From Candidatus Bathyarchaeota archaeon (lineage in GTDB: Archaea; Thermoproteota; Bathyarchaeia; Bathyarchaeales; Bathycorpusculaceae), in contig CAWAKC010000009.1 of assembly GCA_963782525.1 (NCBI GenBank), positions 128,001-192,000 on the forward strand: a stretch of DNA of 64,000 nt. Direction: 5' to 3'. The notes under the pieces were generated by a model. It had not been told where the DNA came from. It searched no databases and saw only the letters and a list, made by a program, of their open reading frames with translations. Of the stretch, positions 51,717 to 62,334 are shown piece after piece. Numbering within the stretch: the stretch's first letter is position 1; each line of letters opens with the position of its first letter. The position numbers and the translations under genes are program-made.

Positions 51717-52670
<954 letters not shown>

Positions 52671-52671
52671 A

Positions 52672-54888
52672 TTAAGTTGATGTAAAGCGGTCAAACGTCG
52701 TCAATGTGCTCATAGAGCCGCATGAGGGGCATTTATGCAGTGTTCCAAAAAAGTTTTTCTTGCAGTTGTCGCAGAAGCTGATTAGGCGGTTGTAAGTGAA
52801 GAATTCTATGGCTGAATTTTCCATTAGGCGCATTGTTAGGTTCATTAGGGCTTCGGGCGTGTATTCTGCTCCTTCGAGTTCAATGATGCTGAGGTTTCCG
52901 CCAGCGTTTAGTCCCTTCATTTTTTGGGCAGTTTCAAGCTGCTCGGTCTGAATGCTAAGAAGCTCAGCGGCTTTCACTTGGAAACGTTTAGCAGTTGAGT
53001 AATATGGTTTTTCTCTTGTTCCTGAAAACTTGACTTGGGCAACTCCGTACCTTTCAACGTCCAACTGCGCGAGCCGTTCAGATGCTTCGGGGCTACCTAG
53101 GATGACTGGGTAGAGGCGTTTTCCGTATTTTCTGCCGATTTTCTGTTTAAAAGCCAAAAGAGTCTGGATTGTTTCTTCAGCGAATTTGCGGCTCTCTTCT
53201 GAGTTAATGGGTTTTCCGGTGAAGGCTTCGGTGGCTTCTCGGAACCCTGCTAAATTGATTAGACGGGAACAGTTTTCTATTCTAAAGTAGGTATCGCGGT
53301 CAGCTTTTTGCAGCAGAAACGGCAGGGAATTTTTCCCGAATTGCCTAAGAGCATTGTTCTTTATTCCCAATGCTCGTGCTGCAAGTTCGAAGCGTTCGCG
53401 CATTAAATCGAAGAATTTGTTTTTATCTTTCTCGCATTCAAGCACAATCCGTGGCAGATTAATCGTAACGGAACCTAAACTGCCAGTGCGTAATGTGTCG
53501 GTTTCCCAGTCGCCCGTTAAATCGGGAGCGAATTTTACGCCTGAAGAAGAGAAAGCCACGTTTTCATTTTCTTTTTTAGTCATGTTAGCAAAATAGGGAA
53601 TCCCGTCTTTTGCCGCTAATTGGTGAGCTTTAAGAAGGATTGCTTTGGCGTTTTCGTCAGCCAACGCTGCACTGTTGATTTTTATCACCACTTTTGGGCT
53701 AAGCAGCGGCTTGTTGATGCTTTCTTCAGCAAAAACGTCCACGATAATTGAGGCTACAAGCTGGCTTTCCTGTACGTAGTCGCCGTATTTGCCCTTTGGT
53801 TTGCCTTCTGGACCTATGGCTTCTTTTTCCACAGTTAATTTTGGAGTCGAAAGCTCCAGTCCCAACGTGGCTTCTGCGTGTTGGTTGAGGTTTTTTATGA
53901 ATAAACGCAGGTTTTCTTTGATCTTTGCAACTTCGTTGCCTCTTACGTAGGGTGCGAGGAACACGTTGAAGTAGTTGAAGGTTTGAGTGCGGTTGGTTTC
54001 TTCGCTGGCATGCAAAATAACGTTAAACGCTATTGATAAGGCGGATTTTAGGTTGCTTGGCGGATCCATGGCGACTTGGAGGGGATTGTCAAGTTTCACG
54101 CCGTGTTGGAAGAAATAACGTAGGTCATGGATTACTTCGTTTGGTTTCAGTATCCAGGTGCCTAGTCCTTCAATGTGGATCGCTCCTGACAAATGTGCAT
54201 CCGCGATATCCCTTGGAAAAACGTTCAGTAACGTATATTCGCCAAGGACGCTTTGGCCTGCCTTGCTGATTGTTGCTTGGGCGTCTTGAGCAGCATCTTT
54301 TGACTCGATAAGAGCAGTGACTTCGTGGATGGGCATGCCCACGCGGGTAAGTTTGTTGCGGTAATCCTCGTAGCCCTTTTCCACCAAAATACCGTTGACA
54401 ACTTCCCTGATAAGTGATGCAGTGAGGTATTTGGTTTTTGATTTTACTAGTCGTTTCTCAGCTTCCTTTGCTGCCTTTTGCGCGAGTTCTGGTGGAACCT
54501 TGGCCTCTTTAATTAGTGAATTCGCAATTTTGTTAACATCAAACTCTTCTAAAGTCAAATGCGAGGTCCGAACAAGCATGCCGCGCGGTTTAACGGCTTT
54601 CTTCTCCACGCGGTCAGCCACGTCCAAAACCATTTTGCCAAGGTCAGTTAAGAAATATTTTTTTGCCTCCACATCTGCCTCAACCAAATCCGCTTTTAGA
54701 AGGAATTTTAGGTGGTAGGCAAACCTGCCTGCGTCTCGGCTGGGGTTCATTTTAAGTTGGTTCATAAGTTCAGTGTAGGAGAGGGCGCTGCTGTCGAAGA
54801 GCAAATTGAGGATTTGCAGCCTAAGCGGTGAAGAAACGGCTTTGAGCACTTTGACGCCGCGTGCACGATGCGGAGGCTGATTAACCAT
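52672..54888 (-). CDS. ArsR-type wHTH + ATP-cone + class III RNR (NrdD)-like protein lacking catalytic motifs
   Basis: N-terminal wHTH, ATP-cone (VRTS...EEFD), NrdD scaffold motifs (AHLSG, FNVFLAPY, PYFAN, TINLPR, CxxC-CxxC); ends FDRFTST without the glycyl-radical Gly. Confidence 0.85.
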   Translation of the reverse strand: MVNQPPHRARGVKVLKAVSSPLRLQILNLLFDSSALSYTELMNQLKMNPSRDAGRFAYHLKFLLKADLVEADVEAKKYFLTDLGKMVLDVADRVEKKAVKPRGMLVRTSHLTLEEFDVNKIANSLIKEAKVPPELAQKAAKEAEKRLVKSKTKYLTASLIREVVNGILVEKGYEDYRNKLTRVGMPIHEVTALIESKDAAQDAQATISKAGQSVLGEYTLLNVFPRDIADAHLSGAIHIEGLGTWILKPNEVIHDLRYFFQHGVKLDNPLQVAMDPPSNLKSALSIAFNVILHASEETNRTQTFNYFNVFLAPYVRGNEVAKIKENLRLFIKNLNQHAEATLGLELSTPKLTVEKEAIGPEGKPKGKYGDYVQESQLVASIIVDVFAEESINKPLLSPKVVIKINSAALADENAKAILLKAHQLAAKDGIPYFANMTKKENENVAFSSSGVKFAPDLTGDWETDTLRTGSLGSVTINLPRIVLECEKDKNKFFDLMRERFELAARALGIKNNALRQFGKNSLPFLLQKADRDTYFRIENCSRLINLAGFREATEAFTGKPINSEESRKFAEETIQTLLAFKQKIGRKYGKRLYPVILGSPEASERLAQLDVERYGVAQVKFSGTREKPYYSTAKRFQVKAAELLSIQTEQLETAQKMKGLNAGGNLSIIELEGAEYTPEALMNLTMRLMENSAIEFFTYNRLISFCDNCKKNFFGTLHKCPSCGSMSTLTTFDRFTST

Positions 54889-54891
54889 ACC

Positions 54892-54952
54892 TTAAACTCT
54901 CCTGAACTCCTCAAACTTTGGGGTTTACCTATTATTCCACTGGAGAGTTTAA
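54892..54952. promoter_or_regulatory. 11-bp perfect inverted repeat in the promoter of the HTH-NrdD gene (candidate operator)
   Basis: TTAAACTCTCC (54892-54902) / GGAGAGTTTAA (54942-54952). Confidence 0.45.
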
Positions 54953-54995
54953 ACTTAACTAAAAAAAGCGGTTGCTGCTTTGGGGTGTTTAACGC

Positions 54996-56958: not shown

Positions 56959-57185
56959 TTGATTTCCTTCCTTGTTTTCAACTAATTTATATCCTGTTCG
57001 TATTAACTTTTTTGAAAAATATAAGCAAACCTACCTGAAAAAATAAAATAAAACCAGCACACAACATAGTTTTTCGGTCTTGCACAAGGCACATACATGG
57101 AAAAAACTCTTTTTGGGTTGATGGCAACGAAACTATTTATTAAGACAATGCGGTGACAATACATAGTTTATCGGGGCCAAATAAC

Positions 57186-58625
57186 ATGAAAATATTCATC
57201 GTTCAATTTCCCTTCGGCGTAGCAGCCTTCGACGAAAACAACGGCTTAGTAGAAAAAGCATTGTTTCCAAAAAATGCGCAAGCTGCAGCTAAAAGCCTGC
57301 TTAAAACTGAGTCTGGAAAATTATCCGACCAGGTCTCCTCATTAATTTCACTTTTAGCAAGCGTAGGTTATGACACTTTTGCTTTTGAATCCGGCAAGTT
57401 GGCAGAGGAAGCCCAAAAGAAAATGAAAGTTGCCGTCGAAGTCGCTAAGCCAGCGGAAACTGCAGTTTTACATTCACGTATGGGTGAAGTAGCAATCGAA
57501 GCAGGCTTTGCCAAAGACGAACAAGAACTAAGCATATGGACGCGCAGCGTCAGTTTGGAACTTGCAAAACTAAGAATCAAAAGTGCCACCGGGAAACGAG
57601 ATTTAATCGTTGCCCAAGGCATCCAAACCCTCGACAGTCTAGACCAAACCGTTAACCTCTTCATGGGAAGACTCCGAGAATGGTATGGCGTCTACTTTCC
57701 AGAACTTGACCGCTTAATCGAGAAACACGAAACTTACTCAAGGCTTGTCGTGAACTTGGGCGACAGAGAAAACTTTACTGTTGAGAATTTAGAAAGAGAA
57801 AACATTCCAAAAGAACGGACCCAACTTGTTGCGAAAGCAGCTGAATCATCTATGGGCGCCGACGTCGCTGAAGCCGATTTGGAAATGGTGCAAGCCTTAG
57901 CCAAGGATGTCCTTAACTTCTATTTGCTACGCAAAACCATGGAAGACTATGTTGACAACACCATGGAGGAGCTAGCACCTAACGTGCGAGCTGTTGCAGG
58001 AGCTCTTTTGGGTGCACGCTTGATCGCCATGGCAGGTAGCCTACAGAACTTGGCGATGAGACCCGCAAGCACTATACAAGTTATAGGCGCAGAAAAAGCT
58101 CTCTTCCGAAGCCTAAAAACAGGCGCTCGACCACCCAAACACGGCTTAATCTTCCAACACACACTTTTGCACGATGCAAAGAGGTGGCAACGTGGAAAAA
58201 TCGCAAGAGTCATTGCAGGCAAACTCGCTATAGCCGCAAGAGCCGACGCTTTCGGAGCAGGCCACTACATCGGAGACAAACTAAAAGCAGACATCAACAA
58301 ACGTATAGAAGAAATCCAAGTTAAATACAAAGAACCGCCAGCGCCCAAGGAAGCTAAACCACGTCCCGAAGGAGCAGCAGGATTTGAACGCCGAGAACAA
58401 CACCCTCCACGAAGAGATGACCGCGGGGGATTCAGGGGCGGCGGCAAAAACTTTGGTGGCGGCGATCGAGGTCCAAGACCACCACATCGCGGAGGTGGCG
58501 GTGGAGGCGGAGGACGCAACTTTAGTTACGGCGGCGGACGAGACAGGGGAGATCGACGAGGCGGCGGCAGCGGTGGAAGCGGCGGTCAAAACCGGGGACC
58601 AGACAGACGTGCACCTCAAAGTTAA
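57186..58625 (+). CDS. nop5: Nop5 (Nop56/58) box C/D RNP protein with Gly/Arg-rich C-terminal tail
   Basis: RLREWYG, APN, PASTIQVIGAEKALF, PPKHGLIF, KLAIAARAD. Confidence 0.96.
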   Translation: MKIFIVQFPFGVAAFDENNGLVEKALFPKNAQAAAKSLLKTESGKLSDQVSSLISLLASVGYDTFAFESGKLAEEAQKKMKVAVEVAKPAETAVLHSRMGEVAIEAGFAKDEQELSIWTRSVSLELAKLRIKSATGKRDLIVAQGIQTLDSLDQTVNLFMGRLREWYGVYFPELDRLIEKHETYSRLVVNLGDRENFTVENLERENIPKERTQLVAKAAESSMGADVAEADLEMVQALAKDVLNFYLLRKTMEDYVDNTMEELAPNVRAVAGALLGARLIAMAGSLQNLAMRPASTIQVIGAEKALFRSLKTGARPPKHGLIFQHTLLHDAKRWQRGKIARVIAGKLAIAARADAFGAGHYIGDKLKADINKRIEEIQVKYKEPPAPKEAKPRPEGAAGFERREQHPPRRDDRGGFRGGGKNFGGGDRGPRPPHRGGGGGGGGRNFSYGGGRDRGDRRGGGSGGSGGQNRGPDRRAPQS

Positions 58626-60542: not shown

Positions 60543-60642
60543 AGTTAAATTAGTGTGTTTTGTAGTGTCTAAAAAGATACAATTTATAAACACCATCTAC
60601 CATCCGTACTAGTAAATACGGGTTTTATACGGCGGTAACTTG

Positions 60643-62334
60643 ATGAGTGAAAAAGACGTAACGAAATTCCTGCAGCTTTTAGGTTTATCTAAAAGAGAAA
60701 TTCAAGTTTACATGTTCCTCGCTAAAAGCGGTGTCCAATCAACCAGCTTCGTTGCAAAACGTCTCAAGATGGAACGTGTGCAGGCTTACCGTACATTCAA
60801 GAAACTGCAGGAAAAAGGATTCATCGAAGCCACCTTAGAGAGACCCACCAGATTCACGATTGTTCCTTTTGAAGCGTTAGTTGACAATTTCATCACCGCC
60901 AAAAAGAACGAGGTCGTCAACCTAAACGACCAAAAAACAAGCCTGTTAACCTCGTGGCAATCAATCAGCGCGCCTGAATCAGAATACCCCGTCGCCAAAT
61001 TCTCAATTATAACGGGCAAGAAAAAGATTCATACCAAAATGATTAACATGATTGAAGAATCCAAATCTGAAGTAATCGTGTTAACCACAGCGTTGGGTTT
61101 GATTCAGGAGGACATTGCAGGAATCTTTGATGCCGCAATAACTCCATCCCAAGAACACAATGTTCAAACCCAAATAATCACGGAAATTTCCCCAGAAAAC
61201 CTCAAAGTAGTGGAAAGAATAGACCGCAACATCGTCGAAGACAAACTCAACATTAAACTTCGCCATGTCGGCATGAGCTCCAAGTTTTTCCCCAGATTCC
61301 TAATCAAAGACGAAGAAGAAGCCATACTCTATGCACCCTTCGGAAACGAAGCGTCTGTTTTAAACCTTGAAGATGAAGGTTTATGGATTAACGACAAAAT
61401 GTTCATATCTGTTTTGAAAGCGTTTTTTGTTCAGATGTGGCAGAGCGGAGTAGACGCTTCAAAACGCATAGAAGAGCTAAAGAGCGGAATTCCAATCGGC
61501 GAAACAATAGTCATCAAAAGCGTCGAGGAAGCATGGAACAAAGTAACCAAGATTTTGGATTCAGCCAAAAAAGACGTCGTAGTCATCACATCTTCACAGA
61601 GCATTAACCGCCTTGCTGAAGACGACCCCATCGTAAAATACTTCAGAAAAGGCTTAAACACCCGCATAATGGCGTCCATCGATTTAGACAACCTTGAACC
61701 CGCCCAAAAACTGGCAAAAGACTACGAAGTTAAACATGTACCCATCAGCTACATGACCATGATGCTTGTTGACAACAAACACCTCTTCATGTTTAAGATG
61801 CCGCCTCTAAGTGACTTCGGCACAGAATCCGCCTTCTACTTAGCTGACACCTTCTACTCCAGCGACCCCAGCCAAATTGAAAGAGTAAGCGAAATGCTAG
61901 ACGACATCTGGAAACGTGGCATAGACATATCAGAGATTAGTAGCCAAGCCGGCACAAAGCTTCCAACGCTAGAAGTTGCCTCCACAGAAACCGTGGCTAA
62001 AACTGTTGGCAAAATGCTGCAGACCAGTGCGACATCAGTTTTAATTACTGAACAGCACAAACCCATCGGCGTAATCAACGATCGAGAACTACTACGAGAA
62101 GTCGTTGATGCCCGAAAAGACCCATTGAAGACACTTGCAAAAGACACCAATTACACCCCACTCATTATCCTTGAAGGGGACGAATCTATGATTACAGCGA
62201 TGAAAATTATGACTGAAAGAGGCTTCAAACGTGCAGCTATGGTTAAAAACGGGCAATTAATCGGCATGTTAACAGAAGAAGCAGCCAAAAAAGTGGCTCT
62301 GCAAATTAAACCCTCCGCCAAAAAAGTTCCTTAG
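60643..62334 (+). CDS. TrmB-family regulator with two effector-like domains and a CBS pair
   Basis: LGLSKREIQVY...KLQEKGFI wHTH; two repeats (SKSEV/AKKDV...IKDEEE/VDNKH); C-terminal IGVINDRE and IGMLTEE CBS motifs. Confidence 0.85.
   Translation: MSEKDVTKFLQLLGLSKREIQVYMFLAKSGVQSTSFVAKRLKMERVQAYRTFKKLQEKGFIEATLERPTRFTIVPFEALVDNFITAKKNEVVNLNDQKTSLLTSWQSISAPESEYPVAKFSIITGKKKIHTKMINMIEESKSEVIVLTTALGLIQEDIAGIFDAAITPSQEHNVQTQIITEISPENLKVVERIDRNIVEDKLNIKLRHVGMSSKFFPRFLIKDEEEAILYAPFGNEASVLNLEDEGLWINDKMFISVLKAFFVQMWQSGVDASKRIEELKSGIPIGETIVIKSVEEAWNKVTKILDSAKKDVVVITSSQSINRLAEDDPIVKYFRKGLNTRIMASIDLDNLEPAQKLAKDYEVKHVPISYMTMMLVDNKHLFMFKMPPLSDFGTESAFYLADTFYSSDPSQIERVSEMLDDIWKRGIDISEISSQAGTKLPTLEVASTETVAKTVGKMLQTSATSVLITEQHKPIGVINDRELLREVVDARKDPLKTLAKDTNYTPLIILEGDESMITAMKIMTERGFKRAAMVKNGQLIGMLTEEAAKKVALQIKPSAKKVP

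Follow-up and report, generated by a model that had tools for sequence, protein, structure and literature searches.

A catalytically dead class III ribonucleotide reductase with a putative DNA-binding head, a candidate nucleotide-sensing regulator in Bathyarchaeia

Domain architecture and loss of the catalytic residues

We analyzed a 64,000-nucleotide stretch of the genome of a Candidatus Bathyarchaeota archaeon (assembly GCA_963782525.1, contig CAWAKC010000009.1, positions 128,001 to 192,000 of the forward strand), referred to here as the window, in which an intact open reading frame (ORF) of 738 amino acids with an ATG start occupies positions 52672..54888 of the minus strand. A first-pass annotation had read its product as a catalytically dead class III ribonucleotide reductase (RNR), NrdD, with an ArsR-like winged helix-turn-helix (HTH) and an ATP-cone in front of the reductase core. 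This architecture is borne out by the Pfam domain matches, with HTH_5 (PF01022) covering residues 20-70 at 29 bits against a cut-off of 22 and DUF7347 covering residues 14-88 at 30.9 against 27.6, followed by the ATP-cone and an NrdD-like core (Table 1). The 738-codon frame was likewise confirmed as intact, with its strand corrected to minus. The NCBIfam NrdD equivalog TIGR02487 gives the dead protein 260 bits, under its cut-off of 326 (326.35), and gives the true NrdD of the same genome 567.6.

The fold was modeled with AlphaFold2 from a 61-row family alignment, giving a confident barrel with a predicted local distance difference test score (pLDDT) of 88.8 and a predicted template modeling score (pTM) of 0.79. 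Foldseek placed solved NrdD chains nearest to this model (9d3x, 8p2s, 4coj, and 1h79; E values of 1e-20 to 7e-27), the best structures being class III reductases of S. thermophilus, P. copri, T. maritima, and phage T4, and the ten-stranded alpha/beta barrel of the RNR/pyruvate formate-lyase type was recovered with a template modeling (TM) score of up to 0.75 on the target length.

To place the protein in its family, a sequence search over 1.84 billion representatives was made, with 1855 matches at E ≤0.001 and 339 at E ≤1e-30. The 92 listed representatives of 600-820 residues, the dead protein, and the active paralogue gave a family alignment of 94 rows. The HTH region is filled in 83 of these, three of which (canonical NrdDs with double cones or unassigned extensions) were removed, leaving 80 HTH-bearing rows with the window protein included; the HTH was assigned by alignment occupancy, with Pfam confirmation for P0001 (the window protein), P0154, P0158, and P0201. 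Invariant columns cluster in the HTH, in the cone plus the linker that follows it, and at the Cys4 site. In the winged helix they are H59, Y78, and G84, and the family signature RDAG[KR]F[AV]YHLK, a motif present in 42 orthologues, falls in the putative recognition helix. In the ATP-cone they are V106, R107, F116, I121, L125, E128, R161, and L168, and in the linker R182, G184, and P186, with the pattern TR[LV]G[ML]P[VIL][HYF][DE]V from this linker serving as one of two signature patterns chosen for a search of related loci. The cone itself is of a variant type. Whereas the canonical cones of the compared reductases and of NrdR start with V-x-K-R-D-G, those of the dead family and of the active NrdDs adjacent to its members start with V-R-T-S, as do 121 of 121 close homologues.

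Residue equivalences were taken from alignment with the active NrdD of the same genome (P0122, 24% identity) and with T4 NrdD. GPYCV of the active paralogue is KPNEV in the dead protein, which replaces the second active-site cysteine, and the finger loop SMCCRLR has become FSSSGVK, with S449 at the position of the thiyl-radical cysteine (T4 Cys290). TPAEGT is changed to GSPEAS and FYTNSS to YYSTAK, while SRVVGY is changed to DRFTST followed directly by the stop codon, placing S737 at the position of the radical glycine; after this glycine the active paralogue extends for about 34 more residues, a tail that the dead protein lacks. A 7-residue gap opposite VPTRVGF of P0122 corresponds to deletion of the loop-2 R...Q stretch. 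The substitutions proposed at first reading (RPNC to KPNE, MGCR to SSSG, TPAE to GSPE, YTNS to YSTA, and RITGY to RFTST) hold in these alignments, as do the deletion of the specificity loop and the retention of the C-terminal CxxC-CxxC zinc site, whose four cysteines C706, C709, C720, and C723 are invariant. Two further proposals fared less well. A change of GN to GS cannot be counted as a catalytic loss, since the active paralogue has TGSIG at this place and the T. maritima chain also has serine, and the change of SGGQ to NRTQ, real in the window protein, is confined to a sub-lineage, other family members having AGEQ or SGEQ.

The loss extends across the family. The thiyl cysteine and the radical glycine occur together in none of the 80 HTH-bearing representatives, and only two have the cysteine alone, whereas the Cys4 zinc site is kept in all 65 that reach the zinc ribbon. 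Judged from these sequences, radical chemistry has been lost in a full-length NrdD copy that gained a putative DNA-binding head. Conservation of the barrel and retention of the scaffold motifs NLPRI, RLAxLD, and GG would suit a protein that is still an enzyme, with a chemistry that dispenses with the glycyl and thiyl radical pair. We regard this as very improbable, because family members differ freely at the former active-site columns (finger loop, TPAE loop, and the position of Cys79), loop 2 is deleted, the HTH fusion is conserved, and no activase is linked. On this last point the first-pass annotation was right: a profile search of the window proteins found no NrdG activase among the neighbors of the dead gene, and the sole TIGR02495 match above cut-off lies on another contig, beside the canonical nrdD.

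Table 1. Features of the dead-reductase locus in the window
Feature	Position	Strand	Remarks
Whole gene: winged HTH, ATP-cone, and catalytically dead NrdD core	52672..54888	-	738 codons plus stop; stop at 52672-52674
ArsR-type winged HTH, residues 14-88	54625..54849	-	Pfam HTH_5, DUF7347
ATP-cone, residues 105-176, variant VRTS start	54361..54576	-	Pfam PF03477, 32.2 bits against a cut-off of 25.8
Post-cone linker, residues 177-192, RNKLTRVGMPIHEVTA	54313..54360	-	Conservation among the highest of the family
NrdD-like alpha/beta barrel core, residues 202-734	52687..54285	-	Pfam PF13597 (NRDD), 241.6 bits, E 2e-71
E251 codon	54136..54138	-	Aligned with Cys79 of T4 NrdD and with the GPYCV cysteine of the active paralogue
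Former finger loop SSSG, residues 447-450	53539..53550	-	MCCR or MGCR with the thiyl-radical cysteine in active NrdD
Zinc ribbon, C706-x2-C709 ... C720-x2-C723	52720..52773	-	Kept; invariant, intact in 68/68 rows reaching the ribbon
C-terminal RFTST	52675..52689	-	Protein end; replaces the glycyl-radical motif R-[IV]-[TV]-G-Y
Conserved promoter block, TTAGTTAAGTTTAAAC...GAATAATAGGTA	54924..54963	-	Only conserved stretch among 26 orthologous upstream regions
pyrB (aspartate carbamoyltransferase catalytic chain)	51720..52670	+	Pfam OTCace_N, OTCace; ends 1 base before the stop of the dead gene

Spread, selection, and the company of working reductases

The combination of HTH, cone, and NrdD core, looked for in other genomes, proved to be widespread. 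The best 120 database homologues are 76-98% identical to the window protein and 118 of them have all four Pfam domains, and at least 565 species genomes (one genome per species) encode a relative, the best 80 being nearly all labeled Bathyarchaeia. Source labels are Bathyarchaeota or Bathyarchaeia, with a divergent subgroup labeled Nitrososphaerales. For 151 genomes sampled from the class of the window the line for a strong match was set at a best E value of ≤1e-79, the next value being 1.5e-47; a strong orthologue is present in 107 of these genomes, another 37 match weakly and only through canonical NrdD, and the remaining 7 gave no match. One contig labeled Methanocella sp. (L097) carries an orthologue 69% identical to the window gene, the other matches being all Bathyarchaeia, and this label is probably a binning or labeling error.

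In a tree of 79 rows without an outgroup, the canonical NrdDs, the adjacent active NrdDs, and a further group fall on one side (support 98) and all the HTH rows on the opposite side, a topology compatible with what may be a single origin of the HTH-bearing family. A second NrdD-like group with neither the HTH nor the finger-loop cysteine (P0254, P0256, P0257, P0264, P0270, and P0210) forms one clade on the canonical side. Most of its rows have no aligned zinc ribbon or glycine region, and P0254 has two ATP-cone stretches; these may be another lineage of dead reductases or truncated sequences.

We estimated selection by pairwise comparison with 17 close orthologues of equal length, a 739-codon orthologue having been dropped; one of the 17, L131, was unreliable because of frame problems, which left 16 pairs. 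The ratio of nonsynonymous to synonymous substitution rates (dN/dS) was 0.036-0.079 for the whole gene in 13 of the 16 usable pairs (finite dS) and 0.04-0.08 for the dead core, values that are rough because dS is 1.0 or more. All domains are under strong purifying selection. The first-pass annotation had argued against random decay from the intact frame, and ratios this far below 1 bear it out. Nearly all orthologues, like the window gene, have an unbroken frame, and together with the low dN/dS and the at least 565 species genomes that carry a relative this refutes a decaying pseudogene or an assembly artifact, a reading to which we give next to no credence. A regulator fits better than a decaying enzyme, given the conserved architecture, the family-wide loss of catalytic residues, the purifying selection, and the linkage to reductases described below.

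Two observations on the reading frame may be added. The HTH-coding 5' part of the gene (window 54589-54888, codons 1-100) has a dS of 0.55-1.3, compared with mostly 1-3 elsewhere, in all comparisons, which may reflect nucleotide-level constraint near the start. A few orthologues are split in two or have one in-frame stop or frame shift, namely, those of G095 (C3:909614-911795), G032 (C4:69465-71680), G145, G113, L075, and L131, and these may be assembly errors or cases of rare decay.

The dead gene keeps close company with working reductases. By coordinates, at least 25 of the 107 genomes have nrdD as the next gene downstream in the same orientation, and when class II nrdJ is counted along with class III nrdD, the dead gene immediately precedes a working reductase gene in at least 29. 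All 10 tandem nrdD neighbors that were inspected keep QCCR and R[IV]TGY and have the same VRTS-type cone, and a class II nrdJ with a TSCPD domain lies directly downstream in all four inspected loci of another family. Co-occurrence with an intact NrdD, which the first-pass annotation had proposed as a check, does not extend to all genomes: the dead protein is the only PF13597 match (single, of the weak type) in 37 of the 151 genomes, 27 of these being at least 90% complete. All five checked genomes in which it is the sole NrdD-family gene carry reductase barrels of class II/I type, whereas a profile search found no such barrel in the window's own genome.

These distributions bear on whether the protein could serve active NrdD as a non-catalytic partner, regulatory or scaffolding, in a heterodimer or higher oligomer formed through the dimer surface or the cones, and so modulate the enzyme, with the HTH perhaps tethering the complex to DNA. 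Hetero-oligomerization had been put forward at first reading as an alternative, and the tandem arrangement with nrdD would agree with it, as would the purifying selection over the whole barrel, perhaps more than a sensor domain alone would require. The adjacent active NrdDs moreover share the VRTS-type cone, and reductase cones mediate oligomerization according to PMC11226230. The idea is, however, weakened by the 37 genomes in which the dead protein is the sole NrdD-family gene, which argue against an obligate NrdD partner role, and by the class II reductases found instead in those that were checked and directly downstream in the four nrdJ loci. In the window's own genome the active NrdD is of another subtype, with a canonical KRD cone, and is unlinked to the dead gene, and members labeled Nitrososphaerales also exist. 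We therefore consider a subunit role unlikely.

In the window the dead gene adjoins pyrB. Of 41 related loci, 29 have a pyrB homologue at a distance of at most three genes, usually convergent as in the window, and 12 have pyrI within the same distance, often transcribed divergently from pyrB and not forming one operon with it; the 41 inspected loci are not a random sample. We regard pyrB as a conserved neighbor and as only a candidate for membership in the system.

This neighborhood also helps to judge a DNA-binding regulator with a non-nucleotide signal, in which metal or redox state would be sensed through the Cys4 site or the barrel, after the manner of ArsR/SmtB metalloregulators, and the cone would be only structural. 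Such a role could draw on the ArsR type of the HTH, on the invariance of the Cys4 site, and on the replacement of the canonical Lys-Arg of the cone. The Cys4 ribbon is, however, an inherited structural feature of active NrdD, conservation in the protein is highest in the cone and linker, the genes nearby belong to nucleotide metabolism (nrdD, nrdJ, pyrB, and pyrI) and not to metal resistance, and the NCBIfam metalloregulator model NF033788 reaches 31.9 against a cut-off of 55. Sensing of metal or redox state is accordingly a quite unlikely function.

Promoters of the dead gene and the NrdR system of the same genome

The conserved block upstream of the dead gene consists of a TATA-like GTTTAAAC at 54947-54954 and a conserved element near the expected transcription start, and it is a probable candidate for an autoregulatory site. 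Of 42 dead-gene promoters drawn from many families, 27 have TTTAAA[CG] between -15 and -110, compared with 5 of 140 other promoters taken from these loci as controls. We trained a weight matrix only on dead-gene promoters and scored other sets against the 90th percentile of the controls, with Mann-Whitney tests. Seven of 11 promoters of tandem reductase genes lie above this percentile (p = 5e-5, a value inflated by related genomes), as do none of four promoters in genomes that have no dead protein (p = 0.80). GTTTAAAC occurs 67 times in the genome, 21 of them outside long ORFs, and an occurrence 135 nucleotides before nrdR was rejected as a shared operator, the site not being conserved in orthologues. 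Palindromes resembling TACA...TGTA or GTCTAA...TTAGAC were seen by eye in several nrdD and nrdJ promoters.

The genome also has a canonical nrdR-nrdD-nrdG operon on another contig (C5:10151-13300; locus L001 698-3963), the products of which score above all the NCBIfam cut-offs, with 157 bits for NrdR, 1078 bits for NrdD (NF006126), and 183 bits for NrdG. Two palindromic boxes of the type ACACTA-N4-TAGTGT stand directly after the TATA box at the nrdR-nrdD-nrdG promoters and are conserved in 14 genomes of the family. They resemble the published NrdR-box consensus, and a model of the boxes matches only the promoter of the nrdR operon in this genome. NrdR was found in 20 of the 151 class genomes, in 16 of 16 from the window's family and in 4 of 27 from one other family, and this restricted occurrence suggests that the window's lineage acquired it. 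The lineage thus has two different cone-bearing proteins with DNA-binding domains, NrdR and the dead reductase. The first-pass annotation had called the latter functionally analogous to NrdR. The likeness of a DNA-binding module, predicted in the dead reductase, joined to a cone stands, but it is not the whole story here, where a genuine NrdR and two boxes are found at the nrd operon. Since the dead reductase is highly conserved though NrdR covers this operon, it is not simply redundant with NrdR.

That same conservation, together with a promoter-block search that found no regulon in the genome, could be taken to favor a DNA-associated sensor with a role outside transcription, for example, one that couples the status of deoxyribonucleoside triphosphates (dNTPs) to replication or repair, or a chromatin-type protein. 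A promoter element that the dead gene shares with tandem reductase genes, the place directly upstream of reductase genes that is typical of a local transcription factor, and the absence of linked replication genes in the 41 loci inspected speak against such a role, which we judge improbable.

Metatranscriptome contigs, from four of five runs with small shares, cover parts of the dead gene at 90-99% likeness and were not counted as proof of transcription. Two of them extend through the TATA block to 54966/54967, so that DNA carry-over or read-through is possible, and they carry no information on strand or level.

Elsewhere in the window, 57153-58625 on the plus strand encodes a Nop5 (Nop56/58-type) protein with a long Arg/Gly-rich C-terminal tail (RGG and GGGG runs) that is closer to the glycine- and arginine-rich (GAR) domains of eukaryotic fibrillarin than to typical archaeal Nop5; the listed fibrillarin ORF overlaps this gene only because it was given an alternative start farther upstream. 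Nearby, 60640-62334 on the plus strand encodes a TrmB-type regulator of 564 residues that carries a CBS domain at its C terminus, an archaeal transcription factor of the ligand-sensing kind.

A candidate regulator of DNA-precursor supply and its relation to known systems

We favor, with a probability of about 0.58, the reading that the dead reductase is a pseudoenzyme-derived transcription regulator that senses nucleotides and is linked to dNTP supply. In such a regulator the dead NrdD barrel, which would be dimeric, would present two winged helices, and the ATP-cone, perhaps together with remnants of other nucleotide sites, would sense the state of adenine nucleotides or dNTPs. Occupancy of the cone might then change the oligomeric state or the placement of the helices by way of the invariant linker K-L-T-R-[LV]-G-[ML]-P. 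The winged helix would bind DNA at or beside the TATA and start region and so modulate the regulator's own gene, and in many relatives it would also act at the promoter of a reductase gene next to its own. Binding of DNA and of nucleotides, dimer formation, and the sign of the regulation are all predictions made from sequence.

Several results weigh against this reading. In the P. copri NrdD, as described in PMC11226230, Lys7, Arg8, Tyr83, Arg87, and Arg91 contact the nucleotide, with Lys7, Arg8, Arg87, and Arg91 named as phosphate contacts. The dead protein has T108-S109 in place of the canonical Lys-Arg pair, and since these are phosphate-contacting residues the binding of ATP or dATP is not assured; when the isolated cone sequence was compared with solved structures, no cone was found either. 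The reductase operon of this genome is already under NrdR, with NrdR boxes, and the dead-gene matrix does not score above the controls in promoters outside the tandem loci, with one of 16 unlinked nrdD promoters (p = 0.17) and one of 14 nrdR-operon promoters of the window's family (p = 0.10) above the 90th percentile of the controls. A 45-bp hidden Markov model of the promoter block has no second significant match in the genome (E value of 4e-11 for the block itself and 0.63 for the next), and clear dyad symmetry was not seen in the block. The pyrB gene is convergent and therefore shares no promoter with the dead gene. Finally, 14 of the 65 distant members that reach the zinc ribbon have glycine at the radical column, though never together with the thiyl cysteine. 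As to the cone, the window protein has Y173, a nearly invariant R177, and the fully invariant R107, R161, and R182; on the basis of spacing rather than structural alignment these residues may serve as substitute nucleotide contacts, with Y173, R177, and R182 perhaps standing for the C-terminal Tyr and Arg contacts.

A wider version of the proposal, which we put forward only tentatively and hold to be doubtful as a whole, would make the dead class III reductase the main archaeal regulator of DNA-precursor supply. It would read ATP/dATP or dNTPs through the variant cone and switch whichever reductase the genome has, class II or class III, possibly coordinating pyrimidine synthesis as well (pyrB/pyrI). 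In the window's lineage a horizontally acquired NrdR would have taken over the nrd operon, with the older regulator kept for another essential target.

NrdR is the repressor specific to reductase genes in bacteria and some archaea, and its mechanism and its rarity in archaea are treated in PMC9110341. With NrdR rare there according to this source, and found in only 20 of the 151 genomes sampled here, the regulation of reductase genes in archaea is largely unexplained. A large and conserved family that combines an HTH, an ATP-cone, and a dead reductase and stands beside reductases of two classes is a concrete candidate for the missing archaeal regulator and, if the proposal is true, would show clearly that a whole radical enzyme can become a sensor. 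We found no description of this architecture in the accessible text of the literature covered, PMC9669993 and PMC9531940 included, with subscription journals and supplements outside its scope. Databases name the family proteins as the enzyme, "anaerobic ribonucleoside-triphosphate reductase." Because of this name, anaerobic dNTP synthesis is wrongly assigned to genomes in which the dead protein is the sole NrdD-like gene.

The closest relative among known systems is NrdD itself. The dead protein has the same fold, the same order of ATP-cone, barrel, and Cys4 ribbon, and shared scaffold motifs, and it clearly has common ancestry with the NrdD subtype whose cone is of the VRTS type and which often adjoins it. 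It differs in having no thiyl cysteine, second cysteine, radical glycine, C-terminal tail, or loop 2, in the added N-terminal winged helix, in its TIGR02487 score of 260 against the 326 required, and in its occurrence in genomes that have no active NrdD.

With NrdR (TIGR00244; a zinc ribbon and an ATP-cone in about 150 amino acids) it shares the joining of a DNA-binding module, predicted in the present case, to an ATP-cone and the frequent position of its gene just upstream of reductase genes of several classes. Unlike NrdR, it has a winged helix and not a zinc ribbon with two CxxC and an RRRR motif, it carries a whole dead barrel, and its cone is without the Lys-Arg pair. The NCBIfam search gave no TIGR00244 match for it, NrdR boxes were not seen at its promoter, and it coexists with a real NrdR here and in 16 of 16 genomes of the window's family. 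The ArsR/SmtB proteins (PF01022, NF033788) resemble it in the winged helix with a recognition helix of H-L-K type, HTH_5 scoring above its cut-off. They differ in being small stand-alone dimers, the metalloregulator model falls below its cut-off as given above, and the metal-sensing sites of that family were not identified in the dead protein.

We know of no dead-reductase regulator with an HTH on a class III barrel. The reuse of a metabolic enzyme scaffold for regulation is familiar from "trigger enzymes" such as PutA and BirA, which, unlike the dead NrdD, stay catalytically active. Betaherpesviruses have catalytically inactive homologues of R1 and so offer a parallel for an inactive large subunit kept under selection, but these belong to class I and have signaling proteins of the host, not DNA, as their targets.

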